Source of the DNA: Eledone cirrhosa
Lineage: Eukaryota
Direction of reading: 5' to 3'
Assembly (NCBI GenBank): GCA_964016885.1
Contig: OZ024762.1
Coordinates: 5,208,001 to 5,272,000 of the forward strand
Length of the DNA stretch: 64,000 nucleotides
Numbering within the stretch: the stretch's first letter is position 1; each line of letters opens with the position of its first letter. The notes under the pieces are model-generated. The model did no database searches and was not told where the DNA came from. It saw only the letters and a program-made list of their open reading frames with translations. Position numbers and translations under genes: made by a program. Below are positions 1 through 24,010 of this stretch, in pieces.

Positions 1-853
1 TGAGTTATCTCCGTTTATTTAGAGTTACTTCCCCGTTATGGAATTCTTTTTATTTTTCTTTCAATTCACTTCCGGTTCTTTGAAAGAAAATCGTTTTCCT
101 ATAACGAGGTAATGAAACTAAACCTTTTCTATATACACACTTTTTATTTACCGTGGCTTTCTGACACGATTTCTTTTAAACCAAAAAACTACTCATACGA
201 ATAGTGTTACTTCTTGTAAAGAAACAAAACTAGGCCATCTCGACACTATATACATTTCTAAGAACTATAACTCAAATTTCTCTATAAAACACATTCTGTG
301 TATCAGCTATCTTTCTTTATTGAAGACATTGTAAACCTTGTCAACAATACGTTTTACTATCTTCTCTTTTTAGAGACATACATATAAAGCTATTTACTTT
401 CTACTACGAAAAATATATTAACCTTCTCTATGCAGGAAAATACCTTTCCTATTTTTTATTAAGAAACAAAATATGTATAGCTACAGTTGTATTTTTTTCT
501 TCTCCATTTCTTTCACAACGAAGCACGGCAGCTTCATTTCTCGCACACGTGTGTGAATAAAAAACGTTAAACACTTGGATTTTACCAATTTTAGGTTGAT
601 CAGTTATTGAAACATGTTCTGTATATTTCCCTCCATAATGTTAGAAATAATTATTTAAACGTTAGGTTGTTTTTTTTTTGCTTCGGCTTAGGGTATGTAT
701 GTGCCATAGTATCTCCTGTGGCCAACTAAGCCCTGGTCATCATAAGCTTAGAGAGTGAAAGAAGCAGTTTTAGGTCATATACTTCACATAGCATCTCCTA
801 CACCCTGGGCAATGTCCCATAGTTTCTACCACGCTAGCATGGGTCGTTTTGCT

Positions 854-3112: not shown

Positions 3113-4604
3113 CAAGAGATTCACTCAGATGGTGAATGGGTGCTAAATATATATATTTATACAAATTTTTCTTTTCCTGAAGTGTGTAGACATATTTTTT
3201 GTATACACACTTATTGGCATTAGCTGTCTTGTTTCTTAGAAGAAATGAAAAAGCAAAAGTTTGGTTTATTTCACATGTTCGTCGCTAGATAAGGAAGTTT
3301 ATTTACATTCCTTTGAAGATGTCAGTAATATTTTCCTGTGTAGAGAAGGTTTAATTCTGTTTCTTAGTAAAAAAGAGAATCAGAAGTATATACGTTAGAG
3401 GGCTGACTGACCAAATGGAAAGAAACAATGCAGTTATTAGTAAGGAGAGTTTAAATTAATGCATGCAAGATTTCACTGTTCTAGCATCACTCCTTCATAG
3501 TTAGCCTATGAGCTTTTCAGTTGACCCTTGTTTGTACAGAAGAAGGTTTATATAAGTGTAACTTTATGTGTGTGTCTAGAGAAGATTTAGTTTTCTTTAT
3601 TAGACAAAGAAAGTATGTACATATAAATGTAACAGATAGAATGCCTTCATTTCAGCTGTCTGAATTCAAATCCCATCAAGGCCAACTTTGCCTTTCATCC
3701 ATTCAAGGTTGATAAAAAAAAAGTACCAGTCTAGTACTGGGGTGAATTCTTCCTCTACACTTCTCTAGAAGAAATCCGCTGTATTCAGACCTGGGCTCTG
3801 CCAGGTTTTAAAAAGAGCCCTAGAAACACTATGTCAATGCGTTGCCTCTATGACTCCCTCGGGAGTTACGGGTCCATACATATAACTCTCACAGCTTGGA
3901 AGTTCTGTATGTAAGTCTTTAAAAACGTTTCATCAGTACACTCAGCTGAGGAGTTAATCCTGCGATAGACCAGTGTCCTATCCAGGGAGAGTCTTATACT
4001 CTCAGACACTTAATTCCAAAGAAACTGGTGAGAAGCTGAGAACAGACTTTATATATACTATATTTAGGTTTAATCAATACATATGTTGATGATTGGAATC
4101 ATGGTCTTAAGATTACCCAAATCGATACTAACTATTACAAATACAGATCTGTCTAAGGCTATGTTACCTACATATTAATTGTTCTGAAAAGATGCATCAG
4201 TCTTCTCCTCTATGGAGCAGAAACGTGGCTCCACACAAAGTCGATTGACAGCAGAGCCCTGGGGACCATCTAAATCATCAGCCCACAGCCTTACTCTCGT
4301 TCAACACAGTAGCACCTGGTAGGCTCTACCCATGATGATGCCGGTCTAGATGTACAAAATACTCGAATATAAGGTGACCCTCCTCCCTATCTTATGTCTG
4401 AGAAGTGGGCAAAAATGCGAACTTTATTTACGTAGAATTTGAAGTTGGCGAAAATGGTCCTTGCTACAAAACTATTGACTCCCTATATAAGTCAACCCCT
4501 TACTACATATTCCCTGGCTTCTATTCGTGTATATCCCGTTATATATGTACCAAATACTAGTAGTTCCTTAATGGCTATATATCCCGTTATATTTATATAT
4601 AGAG

Positions 4605-4670
4605 AGAAACGGAAAGAAAGCGAGATAACACTCGGAATATGTCGTGTTATCTCGCTTTCTTTCCGTTTCT
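4605..4670. repeat. Perfect 27-bp-arm palindrome (12-nt loop) upstream of ncRNA copy 1; MITE-like remnant
   Basis: AGAAACGGAAAGAAAGCGAGATAACAC-TCGGAATATGTC-GTGTTATCTCGCTTTCTTTCCGTTTCT; mirrored at ~11466-11531. Confidence 0.9.
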
Positions 4671-4700
4671 TTTTTTTTAAAAAAGAAGGAAAATGTTAGC

Positions 4701-4706
4701 TATAAG
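4701..4706 (+). promoter_or_regulatory. TATA-like element (CTATAAGTATGACTA block) of ncRNA copy 1
   Basis: Identical block, first T 31 nt upstream of the predicted +1 G, in copies 1, 2 (11435) and 3 (13155). Confidence 0.65.
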
Positions 4707-4731
4707 TATGACTATTTGACTCTGTAGAATT

Positions 4732-4896
4732 GCGGCTTGTGCGTGGCGCTGCACGTAGCGTTTCTGGCTTCGATGTCGTACTTCGGTATGGCATGACCAC
4801 TCGATCGTGTCTGAAGTTCGAATCGTTGCGGGGTCGGCCGGGACCACAGCAGGCTGGCTTTATGCTGGCCTGCTCTCCCGCCGCGCATGAGTTTTT
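4732..4896 (+). ncRNA. Putative Pol III structured small RNA, copy 1 (unknown family, vault-RNA-like layout)
   Basis: A-box-like TGGCGCTGCACG 4744-4755, B box GTTCGAATC 4816-4824, TTTTT 4892-4896, 14-bp terminal stem, C(UUCG)G hairpin, 10-bp 3' hairpin. Confidence 0.7.
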
Positions 4897-7050
4897 GCCA
4901 AACAATTTGACGAGAGTTATCTCCCCTTAATTTGAATTATTTGCCCTTTGTTGACATTGTACTACTTCCGGTTTGTGGAACTCTTCTTCCTTTGTTGTCA
5001 TTTCTTTTCAGTGTATTGAAGCTGTAACATTATTCTATTTACTCTGGGACTATTAACGATATCTGTTTGGATTTTACGTTCGTGTAAAGAGGTATGTAAA
5101 GTTTTATTTGCACTCACGGATATTATTGAGACACAAAAATACATTTCACTATCTTGGAAATATACATACATTTAATTCTTCAATATAAATACATTCTTGT
5201 AGTGTTTTAGTTGCCATGTCTTTTAAATGTATTCTAAACACTCTTCACAGAACTAAACCTCCTTCCGAGAAACAAAACAAATAATATATACACGCAGCTA
5301 CCTCTTCTAACTAAACATACATGTTACTTTCCTCTCTATACCTTATACCATCGTAATTTCTACGTCGAGTTACCTCGGCATCACCACCTTTACTCCAACT
5401 CAGCATTCTCTCTTGCACATCATATCAACTATATATTTATATTATAATCGTATCTCTATTACACCTTCTCTGTATATACTTACTTAGAAGAAAGGTATAT
5501 CTCCTCATTATACACAGTATCCGGAGCTATATAAGAAACTGTAGTATATAGAATACAGACCCTCTCTCTATACATAAACACACTTCGAAGTATTGTATAT
5601 ATGCAGCATCTATATACACACAAGGCAAAGTTAAAACCCTCTTCTCTACTACTTTTCCCGAGGATACTTACATAAAACTCTGGATATTTTAATCAAGGCA
5701 TCTATTTTTTGTACGTAGAGATTCCCCTAACATCTAGAAGACATTATATTCAGTATCCTTCTCAATAGAGGAAAAAAACTCCCCATGTATTATATTACAC
5801 ATACATAGTTTCCTATAGATATGGTATTCCATAGAATACACTCCCTTGTTATACAAACATTGTACACACGTGTGTATATAATACACAGAAACTTACTACT
5901 AGATATTGTGTGTACACAGCAAAGAATCTACTGTTTGTATGTAGAGACTTCTCTGTAACATCTAGAAGGCTTATATATTTATTATCCTTCTCAATAATAA
6001 AAAAAAACATATATATTATATTATAAATACCTCATCTAGAGGCGTATAAGAAACTAAACTGTTCAGGATAAAGAGGTTTGATTTCTGCATCCAGACAATT
6101 ATTGGTGTTAGAGCTGTGTAATCTGGATTATTTTTATTAATATATTCTGTTTCTTTCCAGGTATATTGAAGATCTCCGCCAGCTCACCTGAGTGTGTAAA
6201 TACACACAGTCGTCTCAAGAAATAAAATAACTCCAACAACAAAATGTAGTTTATTTATTAATCTTTATTTCACTTAGAAGTAAGTATATCCTATAGAACA
6301 TTGTATTTTATTATATATATACACAGGTAGTATCTTACATGTAGATCGTTTAACTTCCACTCATAATATATGTATATATTTATGTAATTAGTGAGAAACA
6401 TCCTTCTTGAAAGAAGTGTATATATAGAATAGATTAATTAATGTGTATGTACACTATAGAATCCCAGTAAGAAACATCCTTCTTACTGAAAGAGGTAAGT
6501 GTGGTGCTATAGAAAAGTTTCTTTGAGAATGGAAACTGTATATATATATAATACAGTAATCCTAGCAAGTTTATTTCTTGCTGTGTATATAGGTATTCTA
6601 TATCTCCTGTAAGAGGTTATAATATCTATATATACCTCTCTCATACTTACCAGTAAGTATATAGGAATAGAGGTATTAATAAAGATGTTTCATATTATAA
6701 ACATTTATGATGTGTATATATACAGTATTCTAGTAAGTTTATTTCCTTCTGTATATAGAATAAATTTGTATTCTATATCTCTCCCAGTATGTATATAGGA
6801 ATAGAAGTATGAACTCAGTTCGAAACATCTTTCATGAAAGAAATGTATCTAATGCAGTATTCTAGTGAGGCCATTTCTTTCTGTATGTATACATATGCCT
6901 AGAGATAGAAGGGTGTTAATATGTATGGATTCTATAGAAGTAAGTGTATATATATATACACATGGTTTTAAGGTAATAGTATCCTATAGAATACACGTAC
7001 TTATATACATCTAGAGAAAAAAGTTCAACTCCTTAGCTATATTTATATAA

Positions 7051-9228
7051 ACATACATATACACACATATGTATATAGATATACATACATATGTGTATCT
7101 ATATACATATGTATGTGTATATATATATATATACATACATGTGTATATATACATACGTATGTATATTTATGCATACGCATGTATATATATACATACGTAT
7201 GTATACATATGTATATATACACATACGTATGTATATATACACATACGTATGTATATATATACTTATGTATATGTATACATACGTATGTTTATATACACAT
7301 ACGTATGTATATATGTATACATATGTATATATACACATACGTATGTATATATACACATACGTATGTATACATATGCATATTTATGTATACATACGTATGT
7401 TTATATACACATACGTATGTATATATGCATACGTATGTATATTTATGCATACGTATGTATATATACATACATACGTATGTTTATATACACATACGTATGT
7501 ATATATATACATACGTATGTATATATACACATACGTATGTGTATATATACATATGTATGTATATATACACATACGTATGTATATATATTCATACGTATGT
7601 ATATATATTCATACGTATGTATATATATACATACGTATGTATATATACACATACGTATGTATATTTATGCATACGTATGTTTATATACACATACGTATGT
7701 ATATATACACATACGTATGTATATATGCACATACGTATGTATATATATACATACGTATGTATATATCCACATACGTATGTATATATATATACATACGTAT
7801 GTATATATACATACGTATGTATATATGTACATACGTATGTGCATATATACACATACGTATGTATATATATACATACGTATGTATACATACGTACGTATAT
7901 GTATACATACGTATGTTTATATACACATACGTATGTATATATATACATACGTATGTGTATATATACATACGTATGTGTATATATACATACGTATGTATAT
8001 ATATACATACGTATGTATATATACACATACGTATGTTTATATACACATACGTATGTATATATGCACATACGTATGTATATATGCACATACGTATGTATAT
8101 ATGTATACATACGTATGTATATATACACATACGTATGTATATATACACATACGTATGTTTATATACACATACGTATGTATATATATGCATACGTATGTAT
8201 ATACACATACGTATGTATATATACACATACGTATGTGTATATACACATACGTATGTGTATATATACATACGTATGTATATATATACATATGTATATATAT
8301 ACACATACGTATGTATATATATTCATACGTATGTATATATATATACATACGTATGTATATTTATGCATACGTATGTTTATATACACATACGTATGTGGAT
8401 ATATACATACGTATGTATATATATACATACGTATGTATATATATATATACATACGTATGTATATATATATACATACGTATGTATATATATACATACGTAT
8501 GTTTATATACACATACGTATGCATATACATACGTATGTATATATATACATTCGTATGTATATATATATATACATACGTATGTATATATATACATTCGTAT
8601 GTATATATATACATTCGTATGTATATATATATATATACATACGTATGTTTATATACATACGTATGTTTATATACACATATGTATGTATATATATACATAC
8701 GTACGTATATATATACACATACGTATGTTTATATACACATACGTATGTGTACACATACGTATGTATATTTATGCATACGTATGTTTATATACACATACGT
8801 ATGTATATATATACATACGTATGTATACATATACATACGTATGTTTATATACACGTATGTATATATATACATACGTATGTATATTTATGCATACGTATGT
8901 ATATATATACATATACGTATGTATATATATACATACGTATGTATACACATACGTATGTATACATATACATACGTATGTATATATATACATACGTATGTAT
9001 ATATATACATACGTATGTATATTTATGCATACGTATGTTTATATACACATACGTATGTATATATACACATACGTATGTATATATATACATACGTATGTAT
9101 ATTTATGCATACGTATGTATATATATATGCATACGTATGTATATATATACATACGTATGTATGTGTATATATACATATGTATATATATATACACACGTAT
9201 GTATATATATATATACACATGTCTTTAA
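7051..9228. repeat. Satellite of ~18-24-bp self-complementary units (core CATACGTATG in TA/CA microsatellite), about 100 copies
   Basis: Direct reading; produces the spurious Y/I/H/T/M ORFs on both strands. Confidence 0.95.
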
Positions 9229-10676
9229 TCCTTAGCTATATTTATATAATACAGTAGTCTAGAGATATAAGGGTATTAATATGTCTGTAGGTTGTTGTCT
9301 TTATATCTGTGTAGGGTAACTTCTAAATTTACAATGAAGATATGCTTTATATACACAAAAGTGTTTATATGGAGTATGCCTGTCTAGAGGAGAACAGGGT
9401 ATTGATGTATCCTTTAAAGAAAAGGGTAACTGTGTACATAGGGTTCTACATACTGTACTCTATTGAACCCAACTTCAATATATAATGGAGGTACTTCTTC
9501 CAATATAGAGAAGAAGGTATATTATAGACATGAAGTAAGCTTTGTGTGTCATTGAATGTAAAGAACACTAAATTTCTTTGTATTTATACAGTTAGCTCTC
9601 TTGCTTCTTAGGAAGCATGTACACGTTCTACTGTGAGATCCTTATAAACAACTAGAAGAACAATAGTAGTAGTTTCCTAAGAGACGTATGTGTAGTATCT
9701 AGCGAGAATGTATTGATATGTATGTACAGATCAAAACCTCTTATCTTATATGTGTATGATGTTCATAAAGAGACACACACAATGTGGGTTTAGATATTTT
9801 CTTATATACAGACGTGTCTACTTTTATGTTATTTACCTGTATATAGAGATGGCTTGTTTCTAATAGGTGTGTATCTAGGCAATAACATTTCTCCTGTATA
9901 GAGGGGATTTATTTATATAATATGAATCTAGTATACAGTGACAGAAGGTTTTTGTCTTCCTACAGTGTAAGAGGTGTCTAGTGTGTGTATATATACAGGG
10001 AGTAAATAATAAGGCAACAAAGGAAAATACTGGTTTATTCTTTTATTTCACAATGTATTTACCTTTCTTCTTGAGATAGGGTTGTAGTAGTCTCCAGGTC
10101 TGGTGCTGTTCCTTAGGAATATAGAATAGGTTAGTTGTGTATATATAAAGATTTAGTTTTGTATCTAGTGAAGAACGTTTATATGTGGATGATGTAGCTA
10201 TCAAGCAGGTGAGGATGCTAGAAGTAGTAGTAGTGAGTCTTACGGCAGAGTAATGGAGCTACCATGCTTCGTTAGATATAACTGTATGGTTTAGCTTCTA
10301 TATTAATATGTCTAGAGGAGGTTTAGTTTCGTGTCTATTATTCCAGTATGAACAAGTTTGTATATTGCGCCTCATAAATATCTGTTATGATAAAAGGGAG
10401 ACCGTTTATATATGAATTTAGTTGTAACATGTTAGAAGAGGAAGCTGTGTGTGTGTGTATATATACAGATCATGTTTAGTTAGAAGAGGTAGCTGCGTGT
10501 ATATATTTAGTTTTGTTTCTCCGGAGGCGTTTTAGTTATGATTCTCAAAATATATACGTTTAAATAGGAAGAGTGTTTGTATATATAAATGTAGCTATAT
10601 GTGAGTGTTTAGAATAAAATTAGAAGACATGGCAACTAAAATATTACAAGAATGTATGTATTTTTGTGTCTCACTA

Positions 10677-12057
10677 ATATACAGAGAAGGTGTATGTGTA
10701 ATAGAGATGTTAAAAAGGGATATGAAGTGTGCAAGAGAGGATGCTGAGTTGGAGTAAAGGTGGTGATGCCGATGTAACTCGACGTAGAAATTACGATGGT
10801 ATAGTATCTAGAGTATCTACAGAAGATTAGAGGGAAGTAACATGTATGTTTAGTTCGATATATTATTTATTTTGTTTCTCGGAAGGAGGTTTAGTTCTGT
10901 GAAGAGTGTTTAGAGTAAATTTCAAAGACATGGCAACTAAAACACTACAAGAATGTATTTATATTGAAGAATTAAATGTATGTATATTTCCAAGATAGTG
11001 AAATGTATTTTTGTGTCTCAATAATATCCGTGAGTGCAAATAAAACTTTACAAACCTCTTTTCACGAACGTAAAATCCAAACAGATATCGTTAATAGTCC
11101 CAGAGTAAATAGAATAATGTTACAGCTTCAATACACTGAAAAGAAATGACAACAAAGGAAGAAGAGTTCCACAAACCGGAAGTAGTTCAATGTAAACAAA
11201 GGGCAAATAACTCAAATCAAAGGGAGATAACTCTCGTCAAATTGTTTGGCAAAAACTCGTGCGGGGGCGGGTAGCAGGCCAGCCTGCTGTGGTCCCGGCC
11301 GACTCCCGCAACGATTCGAACTTCAGACACGATCGAGTGGTCAGCCATACCGAAGTACGACATCGAAGCCAGAAACACTACGTGCAGCGCCACGCACAAG
11401 CCGCAATTCTACAGAGTCAAATAGTCATACTTATAGCTAACATTTTCCTTCTTTTTTAAAAAAAAAGAAACGGAAAGAAAGCGAGATAACACGACATATT
11501 CCGAGTGTTATCTCGCTTTCTTTCCGTTTCTCTCTATATATAAATATAACGGGATATATAGCCATTAAGGAACTGCTAGTGTTTTGTACATATATAACGG
11601 GATATACACGAATAGAAGCCAGGGAATATGTAGTAAGGGGTTGACTTATATAGGGAGTCAATAGTTTGACCATTTTTGCCCACTTCTCAGACATAAGATA
11701 GGGAGGAGGGTGACCTTATATTCGAGTATTTTGTACATCTATTCTTGTTAGACTAGACCGGCATCGTCATGGGTAGAGCCGACCAGGTGCTACTGCGTTA
11801 GACGAGAGTAAGGCTGTGGTGGTCCCATCTGATGTTTTAGATCGTCCTCGGGGCTCTGCTGTCAATCGTCTTTGTGAGGGGCCACGTTTCTGCTCCATAG
11901 AGGAGATGACTGATGCATCTTTTCAGAACAATTAACATCTAGGTAACATAGCCTTAGACAGATCTGTATTTGTAATAGTTAGTATCGATTTGGGTAATCT
12001 TAAGATCATGATTCCAATCATCAATATATGTATTGATTAAACCTAAATATAGTATAT
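10677..12057 (-). repeat. Right arm of inverted duplication (partner 4053-5476)
   Basis: Reverse-complement match to the left arm with scattered substitutions and indels. Confidence 0.92.
11251..11404 (-). ncRNA. Putative Pol III structured small RNA, copy 2
   Basis: Same TATA/A/B/T5 layout as copy 1; the 3' hairpin is apically shortened (AGCAGG-CTGG-CCTGCT) but still pairs. Confidence 0.68.
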
Positions 12058-12975: not shown

Positions 12976-13124
12976 AAAACTCAATGCGAGGCGGGGACGC
13001 AGGCCAGCATAAAGCCGGGCTGCCCCCGCAACGATTCGATCTTCAGACACATAGAATGGTCATGCCATACCGAAGTACGACAGCGAAGCCCGAAACGTTA
13101 CGTGCAGCGCCATGCACAGAGCGC
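12976..13124 (-). ncRNA. Putative Pol III structured small RNA, copy 3 (diverged paralogue)
   Basis: TATA 13150-13155, A box, B box GATCGAATC (fits GWTCRANNC), T4 at 12976-12979, UUCG hairpin retained. Confidence 0.68.
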
Positions 13125-16060: not shown

Positions 16061-18102
16061 AATAATTGTGGACCAGAGCCTGTTGAATTGTTGATAAAGC
16101 TGGAGTGTCATCCCTTATTGTAGCAACCTTGTCAACATGAATGTCCTTGGGGGATAAACCCCTTTTCTACAGGTACTTGATAATACCACGATGCCAAATG
16201 TTGTCCATTTTCAAGAGGTCATTACTAATTACATTTGAAGTCCTCTTTCAACAGTCAGATGTCAGTTTACTTGGAAAGAAACAATGCAGTTATTAATAAG
16301 AAGAGTTGAAATTAATTCATGCAAGATTTCCCAGCTCTAGCATCAGTCCTTCATAGTCAGCCAACCTTCGTACTTCTGCTGAGTCAAGCCCGGCGGGGGC
16401 TGACGTCTTAAACAAGCCCCAACAAATAAGAAAGATTTAAAAGAGAATATACTAATTACTAGATATTCACACAAAAGTGACATTAGAATTATTGCTGGAA
16501 ATAGCAGCCAAATATTTATCGCTCGCCACGTTTTAAAATAATGAAGGACACATTAGAAGATGTAGTTTTAGATAGTCATATATACACATATTGGTCAACG
16601 CTGGAATCTCATTGATTCTATATACATAAGTCGGTTCTCAGAGGACCTATTCAGGTTATGGGAACTGTTTTTCCCCCGTGTAAAAATTTGGCGTATATAT
16701 ATATAGATATATATACTTATATATGTCTGTATGCATTTTGTTGGGGTTTAATTGGTGAAAATTTCATAAGGGAGCTGTTGTTTACTTTCATTGACAAGTC
16801 AGACCTGAGCGATCAAGACATATATTTACATATACATAATCAAAAGTAAAAACATTGTTAATATCTTCCTACACAGATAAAATATAAAAGATTGTATTTA
16901 CATGTGTCACAGCTAATTCACCTCCGTAATTCTTAGGAAACCTGGCTTCTATTTCTAGCAAGTGGAGCGTAGACGTGGAGACATGTTGCTGTTGTTTACT
17001 TTTATTCACATGTCTTGAACGAGCAAGACAAGATGACCCGACATGTGTGTAATGGATGGTATACCTGCCGTGACCATCCTGTGTTTATATGATTATCAAG
17101 GTACGCACATCTACATCGTTGAATGCACCTTTCATTGTTTTAAAAGGGGTTGTAGAAGACAGAACATCTGAGGGTGAGAGGCCGGAGATCGTCAGTGAGT
17201 GGCTTTAAATTAATTAGCCATGATTCTATGAAATAAAGAAGCGAAATCACTTTGAAGAAAAATTAGGAGAACAATAGTAATTATTATGAGGCCGGTGTAG
17301 CGATTAAATATTGCCCTTTGTTTACATTAACCCCTCCCGACACCATGGTAATTAGATATTCAGATTACAGGGAGGTGTGGGATGCAATTAATTCTTTTAT
17401 TTATTTACTTATATCAAACAACAAACACGGTGCCAAGGAGTAAATTAAAAAACTCGCCTTTCTTTTAAAATAAAATTCAAGCCTAACCTCTCCCATGATG
17501 CAACAGTGCGGGTAAATAAGTTGACGCTTTCGCGACATCAGTTCCTAAAATTTCACCAGGACGAAATCTCAAGAACGATAACTCTGTCTTTACTTAATCG
17601 CAAAAATGGGTGCAAAAATTATTTCGAAACAACACTTGCTATGGACGAAAACGACAATATTAAAAGTATTTTGTGGATTTTTAATAGGTGAACACATCAT
17701 TATATATATATATATATATATATATACATTTATATAGATATAAATATACATGTATATATCCATATATATACATGTATATATTATATATACACATATACTC
17801 TTTTACCTGTTTCAGCCATCCGGCTGAGGCCATGCTGGGGCACCGCCCTTGTTGCTAAACAATTTATCTCCAGCCTGTATAGGTTGGCCACTGGTGTAAG
17901 AGGGAGTTTGTTGCTGCTGCCCTTAGGTTTCCCTCGTGTCTTGCTGTGGGCTCATCCGGGATCCTGGATAACAAGGTGTCGAGATGTTTCTTGAAGACAT
18001 CCACCTCCACGTCATGCAAATCTCATGTATATATATATATATACATGTATATATATATACATGTATATATATACATGTATATATATATACATGTATATAT
18101 AT

Positions 18103-19265
18103 AGCATCACTCCTTCATAGGCTGACCAAGATACTCTCATGGAATGATCAAATGAGGTTTATTTTTTAACATGCAAGATTTCACAGCCCTAGCATCACTC
18201 CTTCATAGGCTGACCAAGTTACTCTCATGGAATGATCAAATGAGGTTTATTTTTTAACATGCAAGATTTCACAGCTCTAGCATCACTCCTTCATAGGCTG
18301 ACCAAGATACTCTCATGGAATGACCAAATGAGGTATATTTTTCAACATGCAAGATTTCACAGCTCTAGCATCACTCCTTCATAGGCTGACCAAGATACTC
18401 TCATGGAATGACCAAATGAGGTTTATTTTTCAACATGCAAGATTTCACAGCCCTAGCATCACTCCTTCATAGGCTGAACAAGATACTCTCATGGAATGAC
18501 CAAATGAGGTTTATTTTTCAACATGCAAGATTTCACAGCTCTAGCATCACTCCTTCATAGGCTGACCAAGATACTCTCATGGAATGACCAAATGAGGTAT
18601 ATTTTTCAACATGCAAGATTTCACAGCTCTAGCATCACTCCTTCATAGGCTGACCAAGATACTCTCATGGAATGACCAAATGAGGTTTATTTTTCAACAT
18701 GCAAGATTTCACAGCCCTAGCATCACTCCTTCATAGGCTGAACAAGATACTCTCATGGAATGACCAAATGAGGTTTATTTTTCAACATGCAAGATTTCAC
18801 AGCTCTAGCATCACTCCTTCATAGGCTGACCAAGATACTCTCATGGAATGACCAAATGAGGTTTATTTTTCAACATGCAAGATTGCACAGCTCTAGCTTC
18901 ACTCCTTCATAGGCTGACCAAGATACTCTCATGGAATGACCAAATGAGGTATATTTTTCAACATGCAAGATTTCACAGCTCTAGCATCACTCCTTCATAG
19001 GCTGACCAAGATACTCTCATGGAATGACCAAATGAGGTTTATTTTTTAACATGCAAGATTTCACAGCCCTAGCATCACTCCTTCATAGGCTGACCAAGAT
19101 ACTCTCATGGAATGACCAAATGAGGTTTATTTTTCAACATGCAGGATTTCACAGCTCTAGCATCACTCCTTCATAGGCTGACCAAGATACTCTCATGGAA
19201 TGACCAAATGAGGTTTATTTTTCAACATGCCATATTGCACAGCCCTAACATCACTCTTTCATAGT
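18103..19265 (+). repeat. 88-bp satellite array, ~13 copies
   Basis: agcatcac recurs at 18103, 18191, 18279 and onward. Confidence 0.95.
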
Positions 19266-19336
19266 GAGCCTATGAACTTTTAAGCCTACCTTATATGCAA
19301 ACAGTGTAAGTATATACAAATAATTACTAAGAAATT

Positions 19337-19773
19337 CGAAATAATTTTTGCACCCATTTTTGCGATTAAGTAAAGACGGAGTTATCGTTCTTGAGATTTC
19401 GGCTCGGAGAAATTTGAGGAACTGATGTCGCTAAATCGCCAAATCATTTACCTGACCCCGTTGCATCATGGGAGGGTAATGGCTGCCTTTTATTTTTCGA
19501 AAACCATGGCAGTCTTTTTAATATCTTTCTCGCCAAAATGTTTTAATTATTTACTTATATGAAACAAGGAACAAGATGTTGCGAAAGAAACTAAAGAATC
19601 TGCCATCGTTTAAAAAATAAAAGGCAGCCATTACCCTCCCATGATGCAACGGGGCAGGTAAATGATTTGGCGATTTAGCGACATCAGTTCCTTAAATTTC
19701 TCCGAGCCGAAATCTCAAGAACGATAACTCCGTCTTTACTTAATCGCAAAAATGGGTGCAAAAATTATTTCGA
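19337..19773. mobile_element. Foldback/MITE-like element with ~160-bp inverted arms and ~115-bp spacer
   Basis: Arms cgaaataatttttgcacccatttttgcg...ggctgccttttattttt; second copy ~21953-22384, older half-copy ~17395-17630. Confidence 0.7.
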
Positions 19774-19844
19774 ATTTCTTAGTAATTATTTGTATATACT
19801 TACATTGTTTGCATATAAGGTAGGCTTAAAAGTTCATAGGCTCA

Positions 19845-21183
19845 CTATGAAGGAGTGATGCTAGAGCTGTGCAATGTTGCATGTTGAAAAATAAACCTCA
19901 TTTGGTCATTCCATGAGAGTATCTTGGTCACCCTATGTAGGAGTGATGCTAGAGCTGTGCAATCTTGCATGTTGAAAAATAAACCTCATTTGGTCATACC
20001 ATGAGAGTATCTTGGTCAGCCTATGAAGAATTGATGCTAGAGCTGTGCAATCTTGCATGTTGAAAAATAAACCTCATTTGGTCATTCCATGAGAGTATCT
20101 TGGTCAGCCTATGAAGGAGTGATGCTAGGGCTGTGAAATCTTGCATGTTGAAAAATAAACCTCATTTGGTCATTCCATGAGAGTATCTTGGTCAGCCTAT
20201 GAAGAATTGATGCTAAAGCTGTGCAATCTTGCATGTTGAAAAATAAACCTCATTTGGTCATTCCATGAGAGTATCTTGGTCAGCCTATGAAGGAGTGATG
20301 CTAGAGCTGTGCAATCTTGCATGTTGAAAAATAAACCTCAATTGGTCATTCCATGAGAGTATCTTGGTCAGCCTATGAAGGAGTGATGCTAGAGCTGTGC
20401 AATCTTGCATGTTGAAAAATAAACCTCATTTGGTCATTCCATGAGAGTATCTTGGTCAGCCTATGAAGGAGTGATGCTAGGGCTGTGAAATCTTGCATGT
20501 TGAAAAATAAACCTCATTTGGTCATTCCATGAGAGTATCTTGGTCAGCCTATGAAGAATTGATGCTAAAGCTGTGCAATCTTGCATGTTGAAAAATAAAC
20601 CTCATTTGGTCATTCCATGAGAGTATCTTGGTCAGCCTATGAAGGAGTGATGCTAGAGCTGTGAAATCTTGCATGTTGAAAAATAAACCTCATTTGGTCA
20701 TTCCATGAGAGTATCTTGGTCAGCCTATGAAGGAGTGATGCTAGGGCTGTGAAATCTTGCATGTTGAAAAATAAACCTCATTTGGTCATTCCATGAGAGT
20801 ATCTTGGTCAGCCTATGAAGGAGTGATGCTAGAGCTGTGCAATCTTGCATGTTGAAAAATAAACCTCATTTGGTCATTCCATGAGAGTATCTTGGTCAGC
20901 CTATGAAGGAGTGATGCTAGAGCTGTGCAATCTTGCATGTTGAAAAATAAACCTCATTTGGTCATTCCATGAGAGTATCTTGGTCAGCCTATGAAAGAGT
21001 GATGCTAGAGCTGTGCAATCTTGCATGTTGAAAAATAAACCTCATTTGGTCATTCCATGAGAGTATCTTGGTCAGCCTATGAAGGAGTGATGCTAGAGCT
21101 GTGCAATCTTGCATGTTGAAAAATAAACCTCATTTGGTCATTCCATGAGAGTATCTTGGTCAGCCTATGAAGGAGTGATGCTA
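19845..21183 (-). repeat. 88-bp satellite array, inverted, ~15 copies
   Basis: Reverse complement of the 18103-19265 units. Confidence 0.95.
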
Positions 21184-21843
21184 TATATATAGTTATATAT
21201 ACATGTATATATATATACATGTATATATATATACATGTATATATATATATATACATGAGATTTGCATGACATGGAGGTGGATGTCTTCAAGAAACATCTC
21301 GACACCTTGTTATCCAGGATCCCGGATGAGCCCACAGCAAGACACGAGGGAAACCTAAGGGCAGCAGCAACAAACTCCCTCTTACACCAGTGGCCAACGT
21401 ATACAGGCTGGAGATAAAATGTCTAGCAACAAGGGCGGTGCCCCAGCATGGCCTCAGTCGGATGGCTGAAACAGGTAAAAGAGTATATGAGTATATATAT
21501 ATATACATGTATATATATATATCTATATCTATATATATATATAAATGTATATATATGTATCTATATATATATATATAAATGTATATATATGTATCTATAT
21601 ATATGTATATATATATAAATGTATATATATGTATATATATATATGTATATATATATATCTATATGTATATATATATAAATGTATATATATATATATATAT
21701 AAATAAATGTATATATATATATATAAATGTATATATATATATATATATATATAAATGTATATATATATATATAAATGTATATATATATATATAAATGTAT
21801 ATATATATATATATATATAAATGTATATATATATAATATATAA

Positions 21844-21880
<37 letters not shown>

Positions 21881-22454
21881 GATGTGTTCACCTATTAAAA
21901 ATCCACAAAATACTTTTAATATTGTCGTTTTCGTCCATAGCAAGTGTCGTTTCGAAATAATTTTTGCACCCATTTTTGCGATTAAGTAAAGACAGAGTTA
22001 TCGTTCTTGAGATTTCGGCTCGGAGAAATTTAAGGAACTGATGTCGCTAAATCGCCAAATCATTTACTTGCCCCGTTGCATCATGGGAGGGTAATGGCTG
22101 CCTTTTATTTTTTAAACGATGGCAGATTCTTTAGTTTCTTTCGCAACATCTTGTTCCTTGTTTCATGTAAGTAAATAATTAAAATATTTTGGTGAGAAAG
22201 ATATTAAAAAGACTGCCATGGTTTTCGAAAAATAAAAGGCAGCCATTACCCTCCCATGAGGCAACGGGGCAGGTAAATGATTTGGCGATTTAGCGAATTC
22301 CTTAAATTTCCCCGAGCCGAAATCTCAAGAACGATAACTCCGTCTTTACTTAATCGCAAAAATGGGTGCAAAAATTATTTCGAGTTTCTTAGTAATTATT
22401 TGCATATACTTACATTGTTTGCATATAAGGTAGGCTTAAAAATTCATAGGCTCA

Positions 22455-22825
22455 CTATGAAAGAGTGATGCTAGGGCTGTGCAATCTTGCATGTGGAAAA
22501 ATAAACCTAATTTGGTCATTCCATGAGAGTATCTTGGTCAGCCTATGAAGGAGTGATGCTAGGGCTGTGCAATGTTGCATGTTGAAAAGTAAACCTCATT
22601 TGGTCATTCCATGAGAGTATCTTGGTCAGCCTATGAAGAATTGATGCTAGGGCTGTGTAATCTTGCATGTTGAAAAATAAACCTCATTTGGTCATTCCAT
22701 AAGAGTATCTTGGTCAGCCTATGAAGGAGTGATGCTAGAGCTGTGAAATCTTGCATGTTGAAAAATAAACCTCATTTGGTCATTCCATAAGAGTATCTTG
22801 GTCAGCCTATGAAGGAGTGATGCTA
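22455..22825 (-). repeat. 88-bp satellite array, third block, ~4 copies
   Basis: Same unit, following the second foldback element. Confidence 0.9.
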
Positions 22826-23214: not shown

Positions 23215-23362
23215 ACAACTCAATGCGAGGTGGGGACGCAGGCCAGCATAAAGCCGGGCTGCCCCCGCAACGATTCGATCTTCAGACACATAGAATGGTC
23301 ATGCCATACCGAAGTACGACAGCGAAGCCCGAAACGTTACGTGCAGCGCCACTCTACTGAGT
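23215..23362 (-). pseudogene. Pseudogenised copy 4 of the small RNA gene (within duplicate 22908-23362 of 12670-13137)
   Basis: 14-nt deletion removes the 5' end, terminator TTTT->TTGT, TATA region replaced by an RTE fragment. Confidence 0.7.
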
Positions 23363-24010
23363 CCTTACCTGTTAGTTTGCTTGCTATCCAACTACATCTC
23401 TTGTCTACCCAAGATCTGCATTGTGTTCATTTCATAGAATTTATGCCAGTTCCTTTTCTGCATATCGAACATGGCCATTTCCCTGATGGGATCAGAGTTT
23501 TGTCCTCTTTTCTCCTCATCAGTTGTCTTAGGTAGGTTCACTCTGTCCTCTTGATTCCAACTGCTGTTTCCATAGCTAGAATTTATTCTCTAGCTCCTCT
23601 ACTGATTCTGTTATAAGAACCAGATCGTCAGCATAGAGAAGTTCCCATGGACAACCAGTCTTAAACTCCTCTGTTATGGCTTGGAGGACTATAATGAACA
23701 AGAGTGGGCTGAGGATCAAACCCTGATGTACTCCTACTTGTATCTGGAATTCCACACTAAACTCCATTCCTACCTTCACTTTACTGACAGCACCGCTGTA
23801 CAAAGTTTGCACTGTCCTCACAAGCCATTCCTCAACACCAAGCTTCCTTAAGGACCACCAGATGACAGATCGGGGTACCCTATCAAAGGCCTTCTCTAGG
23901 TCAACAAAAGCTAAGTATAGTAGCTTATTCTTCTCTAAGAACCTCTCTTGTAATTGTCTCACTAAGAAGAGGGCATCCGTTGTACTTTTCCCAGGCACAA
24001 AACCAAACTG
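23363..24010 (-). mobile_element. RTE-clade LINE RT fragment
   Basis: QFGFVPGKSTTDA, AFVDLEKAFDRVP, GVHQG, ELLYADD; disrupted downstream WPCSIC region. Confidence 0.9.

Follow-up and report, generated by a model that had tools for sequence, protein, structure and literature searches.

Rodent BC1 RNA comes from a tRNA-derived gene that has refolded into a rod and has an upstream TATA box; the gene is single-copy, conserved and expressed, and it is the master gene of a SINE. Primate snaR genes, in the part of the published account drawn upon here, derive from an Alu monomer, are about 120 nt long, occupy about 30 loci and have proven expression and NF90 binding (PMC3337139). Vault RNAs have previously been reported in two lophotrochozoan lineages, according to the portion of that report used (PMC2770079); an earlier, sequence-only reading of the DNA described here had taken them to be annotated mainly in deuterostomes. 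That DNA (hereafter the window) is a stretch of 64,000 nucleotides from Eledone cirrhosa, and with a probability of roughly 0.55 we consider that it carries a predicted, likely tRNA-derived Pol III gene which has multiplied within a non-coding duplicated segment, and whose RNA is likely to be a by-product and not a conserved effector.

The features of the gene and its immediate surroundings are as follows (window positions).

4592..4683, no strand: upstream inverted repeat with 40-nt arms and a 12-nt spacer, belonging to the unit in young and old subfamilies
4701..4706, plus strand: TATA-like box TATAAG, present in young and old subfamilies
4732..4896, plus strand: predicted Pol III transcript of subtype 1, 165 nt, its predicted +1 being 31 nt after the TATA box
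4744..4755, plus strand: degenerate A-box-like motif, the start of a block aligning ungapped with the 5' half of tRNA-Arg (19/30)
4766..4836, plus strand: tRNA-like core with a weak full-length fit to a tRNA-Arg covariance model
4816..4824, plus strand: B box, of the form GWTCRANNC in most young and old copies (counts below)
4892..4896, plus strand: T5 terminator, by motif position
4914..5110, plus strand: co-duplicated downstream module of short repeated motifs

The TATAAG, A-box-like, B box and T5 motifs had been proposed from the letters of the window and each was found at its claimed position. The GC- and CpG-rich island described there was also confirmed (60% GC, 18 CpG in 164 nt), with a CpG O/E of 1.24 in the gene against 0.07-0.45 in more distant parts of the unit, and the helices that had been drawn match the predicted fold of the 164-nt stretch (z -5.06, with 0/200 shuffles as stable), the opposite strand giving an unremarkable z of -1.5. 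The window copy is unusually good, being the best-folding ordinary variant among those listed; the pair that completes its 14-bp terminal stem was formed in 1/53 variants and is private to it, and the ninth pair of the UUCG hairpin is rare (formed in 8/53). Near-invariant A14 and a final G are consensus positions of an A box, and the A box read from the sequence here lacks A14; when it is read as 11 nt, its final G is missing too. The gene had been called unrecognised, and Rfam indeed gave no family match to the window at gathering level; among 20 weak Rfam matches in 4600-5000 the gene body was covered only by a 35-nt chance match. ARAGORN found no tRNA in the window, and RF00005 likewise gave no intact cloverleaf at the gene. 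The element is a member of none of the families tested.

It had been proposed that the gene was either a vault RNA or a new lineage-specific Pol III RNA. The multicopy Pol III-type gene stands, the vault identity does not, and a functional RNA comes without covariation and without excess conservation in old copies (see below). The relaxed-threshold search with the Rfam vault model that had been suggested was run, and RF00006 (gathering threshold 34 bits) left the window gene unmatched at E<=10. A model built from 7 of the animal's own vault genes, with filters off, matched none of the 4 window copies at E<=10, and in the reverse search the element's own model left the vault loci unmatched. Block-wise alignment to the animal's own vault genes was not significant (p 0.08-0.97), and whole-length comparison with five vault variants gave p 0.03-0.8. 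The search also located the genome's real vault RNA cluster, at C3:221.18-221.25 Mb, with 14 matches over the RF00006 cut-off (scores 34-43 bits); its genes (loci L081-L090) are in tandem and of two alternating types, 87 and 93 nt, with an upstream TATA and the conserved vault blocks, and a literature search on vault RNA with octopus found no description of this cluster. The vault-like letters on which the proposal had leaned, GTTCGA at the B box and GCTCTCC, proved to be confined to one young subfamily, subtype 1, while subtype 2 and most older copies have GATCGAATC and no GCTCTCC. As for the vault layout, the TATA box, internal boxes, closing stem and oligo-T are all present, but this layout is common to many Pol III genes and the A box is degenerate. 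The gene is not the animal's vault RNA, the cluster of which sits on another chromosome; vault RNA was ruled out by both models, the block tests, the reverse search and the true cluster on C3. A divergent, nc886-like vault paralogue would account for features that the gene has in common with the animal's own vault genes, namely a TATA box near -31, a closing stem and a T-run, and for a short stretch at the UUCG hairpin that resembles the vault 5' block, but as both vault models miss the gene, the block-wise and whole-length p values are as above, the element's model does not match the vault loci and the true cluster lies elsewhere, we find this scarcely credible.

A likeness to tRNA-Arg was first seen by eye and then tested with the genome's own tRNA genes, the comparison set comprising Arg, Thr, Ile and Ala/Val/Asp-like genes; tRNA-Arg(TCT/CCT) genes were not found by motif searches and this isotype is absent from the comparison. 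Subtype 1 aligned with a z of about 4 to 4/12 Arg genes and of <2.4 to 22 other tRNA-like genes (Thr/Ala/Val-like), and subtype 2 did not reach significance against tRNA genes except weakly. The block matching the tRNA-Arg 5' half from the A-box-like motif onwards gave p 0.02 in subtype 1 and was not significant in subtypes 2 and 3, and the old-family consensus gave z 3.4 to Arg(ACG) and up to 4.5 to Thr. A tRNA-Arg covariance model produced a full-length match at exactly 4766-4836, although a weak one (7.5 bits, E 8.2), and 9.6-10.4 bits in 3/18 older loci; as references, SINE heads score about 25 bits and intact tRNA-like genes about 50. This suggests, at about two in three, that the gene is tRNA-derived, its ancestor perhaps being of Arg isotype. 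What tells against the strength of a tRNA origin is that 7.5-10.4 bits compares poorly with the roughly 25 of SINE heads, that the tests came after the likeness had been seen by eye, and that with the old consensus Thr does no worse than Arg.

Two other tRNA-related observations were made in this genome. A dense cluster of about 45 tRNA-Arg(TCG)-type motif matches lies at C6:63.12-63.17 Mb. Separately, the tRNA-like genes L055 and L057-L065, which have varied anticodons (GGC, AGC, GAC, GGT and GTC) and lie on several chromosomes, have near-identical flanks on both sides, and are apparently another tRNA-bearing repeat copied with its flanks.

The gene is multicopy, as had been supposed: four copies lie in the window, and a fifth, older copy sits just before its first base. 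The remaining features of the window that concern these copies and the duplicated unit are given here.

1..800, plus strand: downstream module of the older copy (type 3), the gene itself, at C23:5207770-5207990, ending shortly ahead of base 1
6960..9230, no strand: TA-rich microsatellite between the two convergent subtype-1 genes
11252..11404, minus strand: second copy of subtype 1, its 3' hairpin shortened by an 11-nt deletion
12977..13124, minus strand: subtype-2 copy of 149 nt whose B box reads GATCGAATC; it lies upstream of the second copy of subtype 1, at a distance of 1.7 kb
17332..17702, no strand: repeat K, rich in CpG; it precedes subtype 2 by about 4.2 kb, and one old copy shows an equal distance
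18102..22825, no strand: inverted 88-bp tandem arrays with K/K fold-back junctions at 19335-19774 and 21952-22383, the palindrome centre of intact units
23216..23364, minus strand: subtype-2 copy, 5'-truncated

An exact 18-mer from the core occurs 92 times in the genome (control 0), on C22, C23, C25 and one scaffold only, and a 26-mer allowing <=3 mismatches identified 136 young copies genome-wide, of which the 100 listed are all on C22, C23, C25 and one scaffold (the other 36 are unlisted). The young copies are mostly on three small chromosomes and form two subtypes, of about 164 and 149 nt, which are usually in tandem and 1.4-1.75 kb apart. In the window the second subtype-1 copy lies in an arm (10719-12057) that is inverted relative to 4053-5426 (88% identity). 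One variant subtype-1 copy (L034:7674-7842) and its mirror copy in L036 have an inverted duplicate of the core replacing the 3' hairpin, which gives a near-perfect long hairpin of -102 kcal/mol. In a search with the older copy as query, 40 of 243 candidates were scored; these are 75-100% identical, are found on 13 chromosomes and are often in inverted pairs, and a search with the downstream flank added C14 to the chromosomes with older relatives. Besides the chromosomes of the young copies, at least 13 carry such relatives. Subfamilies cluster by chromosome, and the gene total is a few hundred copies.

The young units are palindromes of 29-49 kb with arms 85-96% identical, and the arms bear genes of subtypes 2 and 1 in tandem. 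Palindrome centres consist of inverted 88-bp arrays and fold-back junctions of the CpG-rich repeat K, and convergent genes are separated by AT-rich spacers, in the window a TA microsatellite. The TATA box, the upstream inverted repeat and >1 kb of downstream sequence co-travel with the gene, and kilobases of flank are shared; the outer palindrome ends are ragged and vary from one unit to the next, and the 3/3 units examined showed no evident target-site duplication. A retroposed tRNA-derived SINE, or the master gene of one, might have been expected from the weak tRNA likeness, the B box and the T-run, and tRNA-derived SINEs are common in molluscs (PMC4758252, in the part of that source used), but nearly every copy has been duplicated together with its upstream promoter and flanks, a tail is lacking, the units examined gave no sign of a target-site duplication and the copies number in the hundreds, making this a very improbable account. 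The element is not a SINE, because promoter and kilobase flanks are shared and the palindromes have ragged ends; copies do not start at the transcript 5' end.

These palindromes bring up another explanation, that the unit is itself a mobile DNA element of a non-autonomous kind, either similar to Helentrons or replicating via hairpin ends, which the Pol III gene would serve as a chromatin barrier or through a VA/BocaSR-like RNA. It would be in keeping with the way that units alternate head-to-head and tail-to-tail and with the position of repeat K, constantly about 4.2 kb upstream in the young copies and in one old copy. The internal tandem arrays and microsatellite are as in HINE elements, so far as the section consulted describes them (PMC4067079), and the tandem pair of Pol III genes is reminiscent of VA I/II and EBER1/2 as presented in the part used of another report (PMC11194592). 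Such an element is called into question by the ragged ends and by the target-site duplications that were not seen. Pfam searches of the 60 longest of 105 ORF clusters found no Rep/helicase, transposase or viral protein within the units (they did find LINE and other retroelement fragments, a zinc-finger ORF and a BTB ORF, and also an ISXO2-like and a Pif1 fragment outside the unit); the sole match to viral contigs was a single 18-mer that could not be extended and is put down to chance, and metagenome contigs gave 0. We think a mobile element distinctly unlikely. Taken to its full extent, the idea would be of a protein-free, palindrome-forming mobile element with its own pair of tRNA-derived VA/EBER-like Pol III genes, the RNAs of which, in that element or co-opted by the host, would be a double-stranded-RNA decoy or replication aid, with the young subfamily as the active, structure-optimised form; by analogy this could be entertained as a whole, but it is doubtful.

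Repeat K itself is widespread, an exact 27-mer having 240 matches genome-wide on many chromosomes, often in inverted pairs. It was seen at window 17332-17702, 19335-19774 and 21877-22383 and in L131-L142; the full form measures about 750 bp, with TA runs at its limits, and its outer part, absent from the window copy, resembles a second tRNA-derived sequence by eye, and one K pair (L137:4532-4993) flanks an ISXO2/Merlin-like transposase fragment. A piggyBac-type end at repeat K was considered and rejected because homology continues beyond the apparent TTAA. There is also a short abundant repeat with TA-run ends (L193-L221; 1220 candidates), often in fold-back pairs; this repeat is inserted upstream of one old gene copy. 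The unit spacers at 5430-6960 and 9230-10720 have a TpA O/E of 1.1 and a CTAG O/E of about 2.4, compared to 0.75 and 0.4-0.9 in the neighbouring gene. Exons of exportin-2 (CSE1L; Pfam Cse1 and CAS_CSE1) were identified on the minus strand at 29438-50092 of the window; its last exons were not located, and the unit may sit in an intron of CSE1L or 3' of it.

The young subfamily could instead be a structured RNA with a function specific to its lineage, comparable to primate snaR or rodent BC1, which would act via double-stranded-RNA-binding proteins or ribosomes, the old copies being pseudogenes of earlier versions. In 74 full-length young subtype-1 copies, which were chosen by gene (23/121 partial or short-flanked copies being left out), pi was 0.03-0.04 in gene and promoter compared to 0.09-0.18 in the flanks, and this low diversity favours a functional RNA and counts against a by-product, with the reservation that choice by gene carries. 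Also in its favour, the B box GWTCRANNC is kept in 106/111 young copies (a count that excludes 10 in which no start or terminator could be recognised), and in 31/36 old ones, and 9/15 substitutions at paired sites in subtype 1 preserve the pair. Coordinated changes distinguish the terminal stems of subtypes 1 and 2, effectively as one event, and a hairpin that is bulged in the old copies is capped by UUCG in the young lineage; both the stem change and the UUCG gain would fit selection on master copies, and the mode of spread equals that of snaR in the part of its description used (PMC3337139).

On the other side, only 8/29 paired-site substitutions in subtype 2 preserve the pair and 21/29 break it, and among 24 subtype-2 copies the gene (0.037) is no less variable than the downstream sequence (0.02). 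Covariation was absent from 32 diverged copies (2 double changes vs 2.3 in shuffles). Loci picked by their downstream flank lacked the gene in 4/27 cases and had large gene deletions in 3/27, and an alignment of the 22 gene-bearing old loci, from which one duplicate had been removed, gave diversities of 0.172 for the gene, 0.108 for its core and 0.114 for unselected flank; in copies sampled in this way, conservation of the gene does not exceed that of the flank. The folds of old copies have a median z of about -1.5, with 4/28 reaching -3, and the decay of the older copies shows no sign of preservation of the RNA fold. CpG changes are rare in young copies and raised 1.6-fold in old ones; CpG is retained and only mildly hypermutable. 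No independent cross-species copy could be set beside these: in the runs labelled as organisms B and C one contig each covers the gene, and because of their low depth (3-5) and because their changes also occur among own-genome copies they were not counted as such. The microRNA sequences in the supplement of PMC9699675 gave no match in the small part compared, a result that says nothing for or against a microRNA origin. A functional lineage-specific RNA is possible but unsupported, and on this balance we rate it as rather improbable.

Our preferred reading, of a by-product RNA from a gene multiplied in duplicated DNA, would work in the following way. A tRNA gene, perhaps Arg, would have degenerated and been extended at its 5' and 3' ends, so that it took on a new fold, a long stem topped by two hairpins, keeping its TATA box, B box and T-run. 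TFIIIC and TFIIIB would bind to intact copies, from which an RNA of 150-190 nt would be transcribed, and the binding of these factors would maintain a local unmethylated CpG island, which would fit the CpG island that is retained (O/E 1.24). The surrounding segment, both tandem and inverted, would spread by DNA-level duplication, mostly intrachromosomally. The palindromes would arise where the self-complementary sequences, TA microsatellite and K/K junctions, fold back, fold-back being a generally known mechanism of palindrome formation. Each subfamily would then expand and afterwards decay about as fast as its flank.

Literature searches on octopus and cephalopod Pol III RNAs, tRNA-derived repeats, vault RNA and Pol III genes in DNA elements, which left most subscription journals outside, turned up no description of the element. 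It is apparently an undescribed multicopy Pol III-type gene, of predicted transcription, in an unusual palindromic context. If our preferred reading is true it would be an invertebrate parallel to snaR, in which palindromic duplication of DNA, and not retroposition, has spread a Pol III gene, and it would provide a marked set of young 30-50 kb palindromes for studying rearrangement of small chromosomes; a young subfamily that was expressed and bound by double-stranded-RNA proteins would, with its roughly 130 copies, count as a new lineage-specific RNA.

Compared with known systems, the element shares with vault RNA (RF00006 and the C3 cluster) an upstream TATA, internal boxes, a closing stem and a T-run, but it is 149-165 nt long where the vault RNAs are 87-93 nt, it lacks the vault blocks and it differs in locus and arrangement. 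Like BC1 it would be tRNA-derived and refolded into a rod with an upstream TATA, but BC1, being single-copy, conserved and expressed, is unlike it. With molluscan tRNA SINEs and Helenus TRIMs, as described in the parts of those reports used (PMC4758252, PMC10886601), it has in common that it is a repeat with a tRNA-like Pol III promoter; in contrast to these repeats it has neither a tail nor an evident target-site duplication, paired direct LTRs with a primer site were not noted in it, and it is copied as DNA, with kilobase flanks and in palindromes. Adenovirus VA RNA, EBER and bocavirus BocaSR resemble it in a length of 140-170 nt, a tandem gene pair and long stems, and BocaSR sits in a hairpin-ended genome (PMC11194592, again in the part used), but no viral protein or match surrounds the element and the resemblance is one of layout only. 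With snaR, in so far as the sections used describe it (PMC3337139), the likeness is that of a structured Pol III-type gene which has an earlier Pol III RNA as its source, has been reshaped by indels, and is carried by segmental duplication with conserved flanks, largely intrachromosomally and in inverted arrays. The element differs from snaR in that it is likely tRNA-derived, has a predicted gene of 150-190 nt and exists in hundreds of copies, and no homology is claimed, but by this analogy it would appear, in its origin and its spread, to work most like primate snaR.
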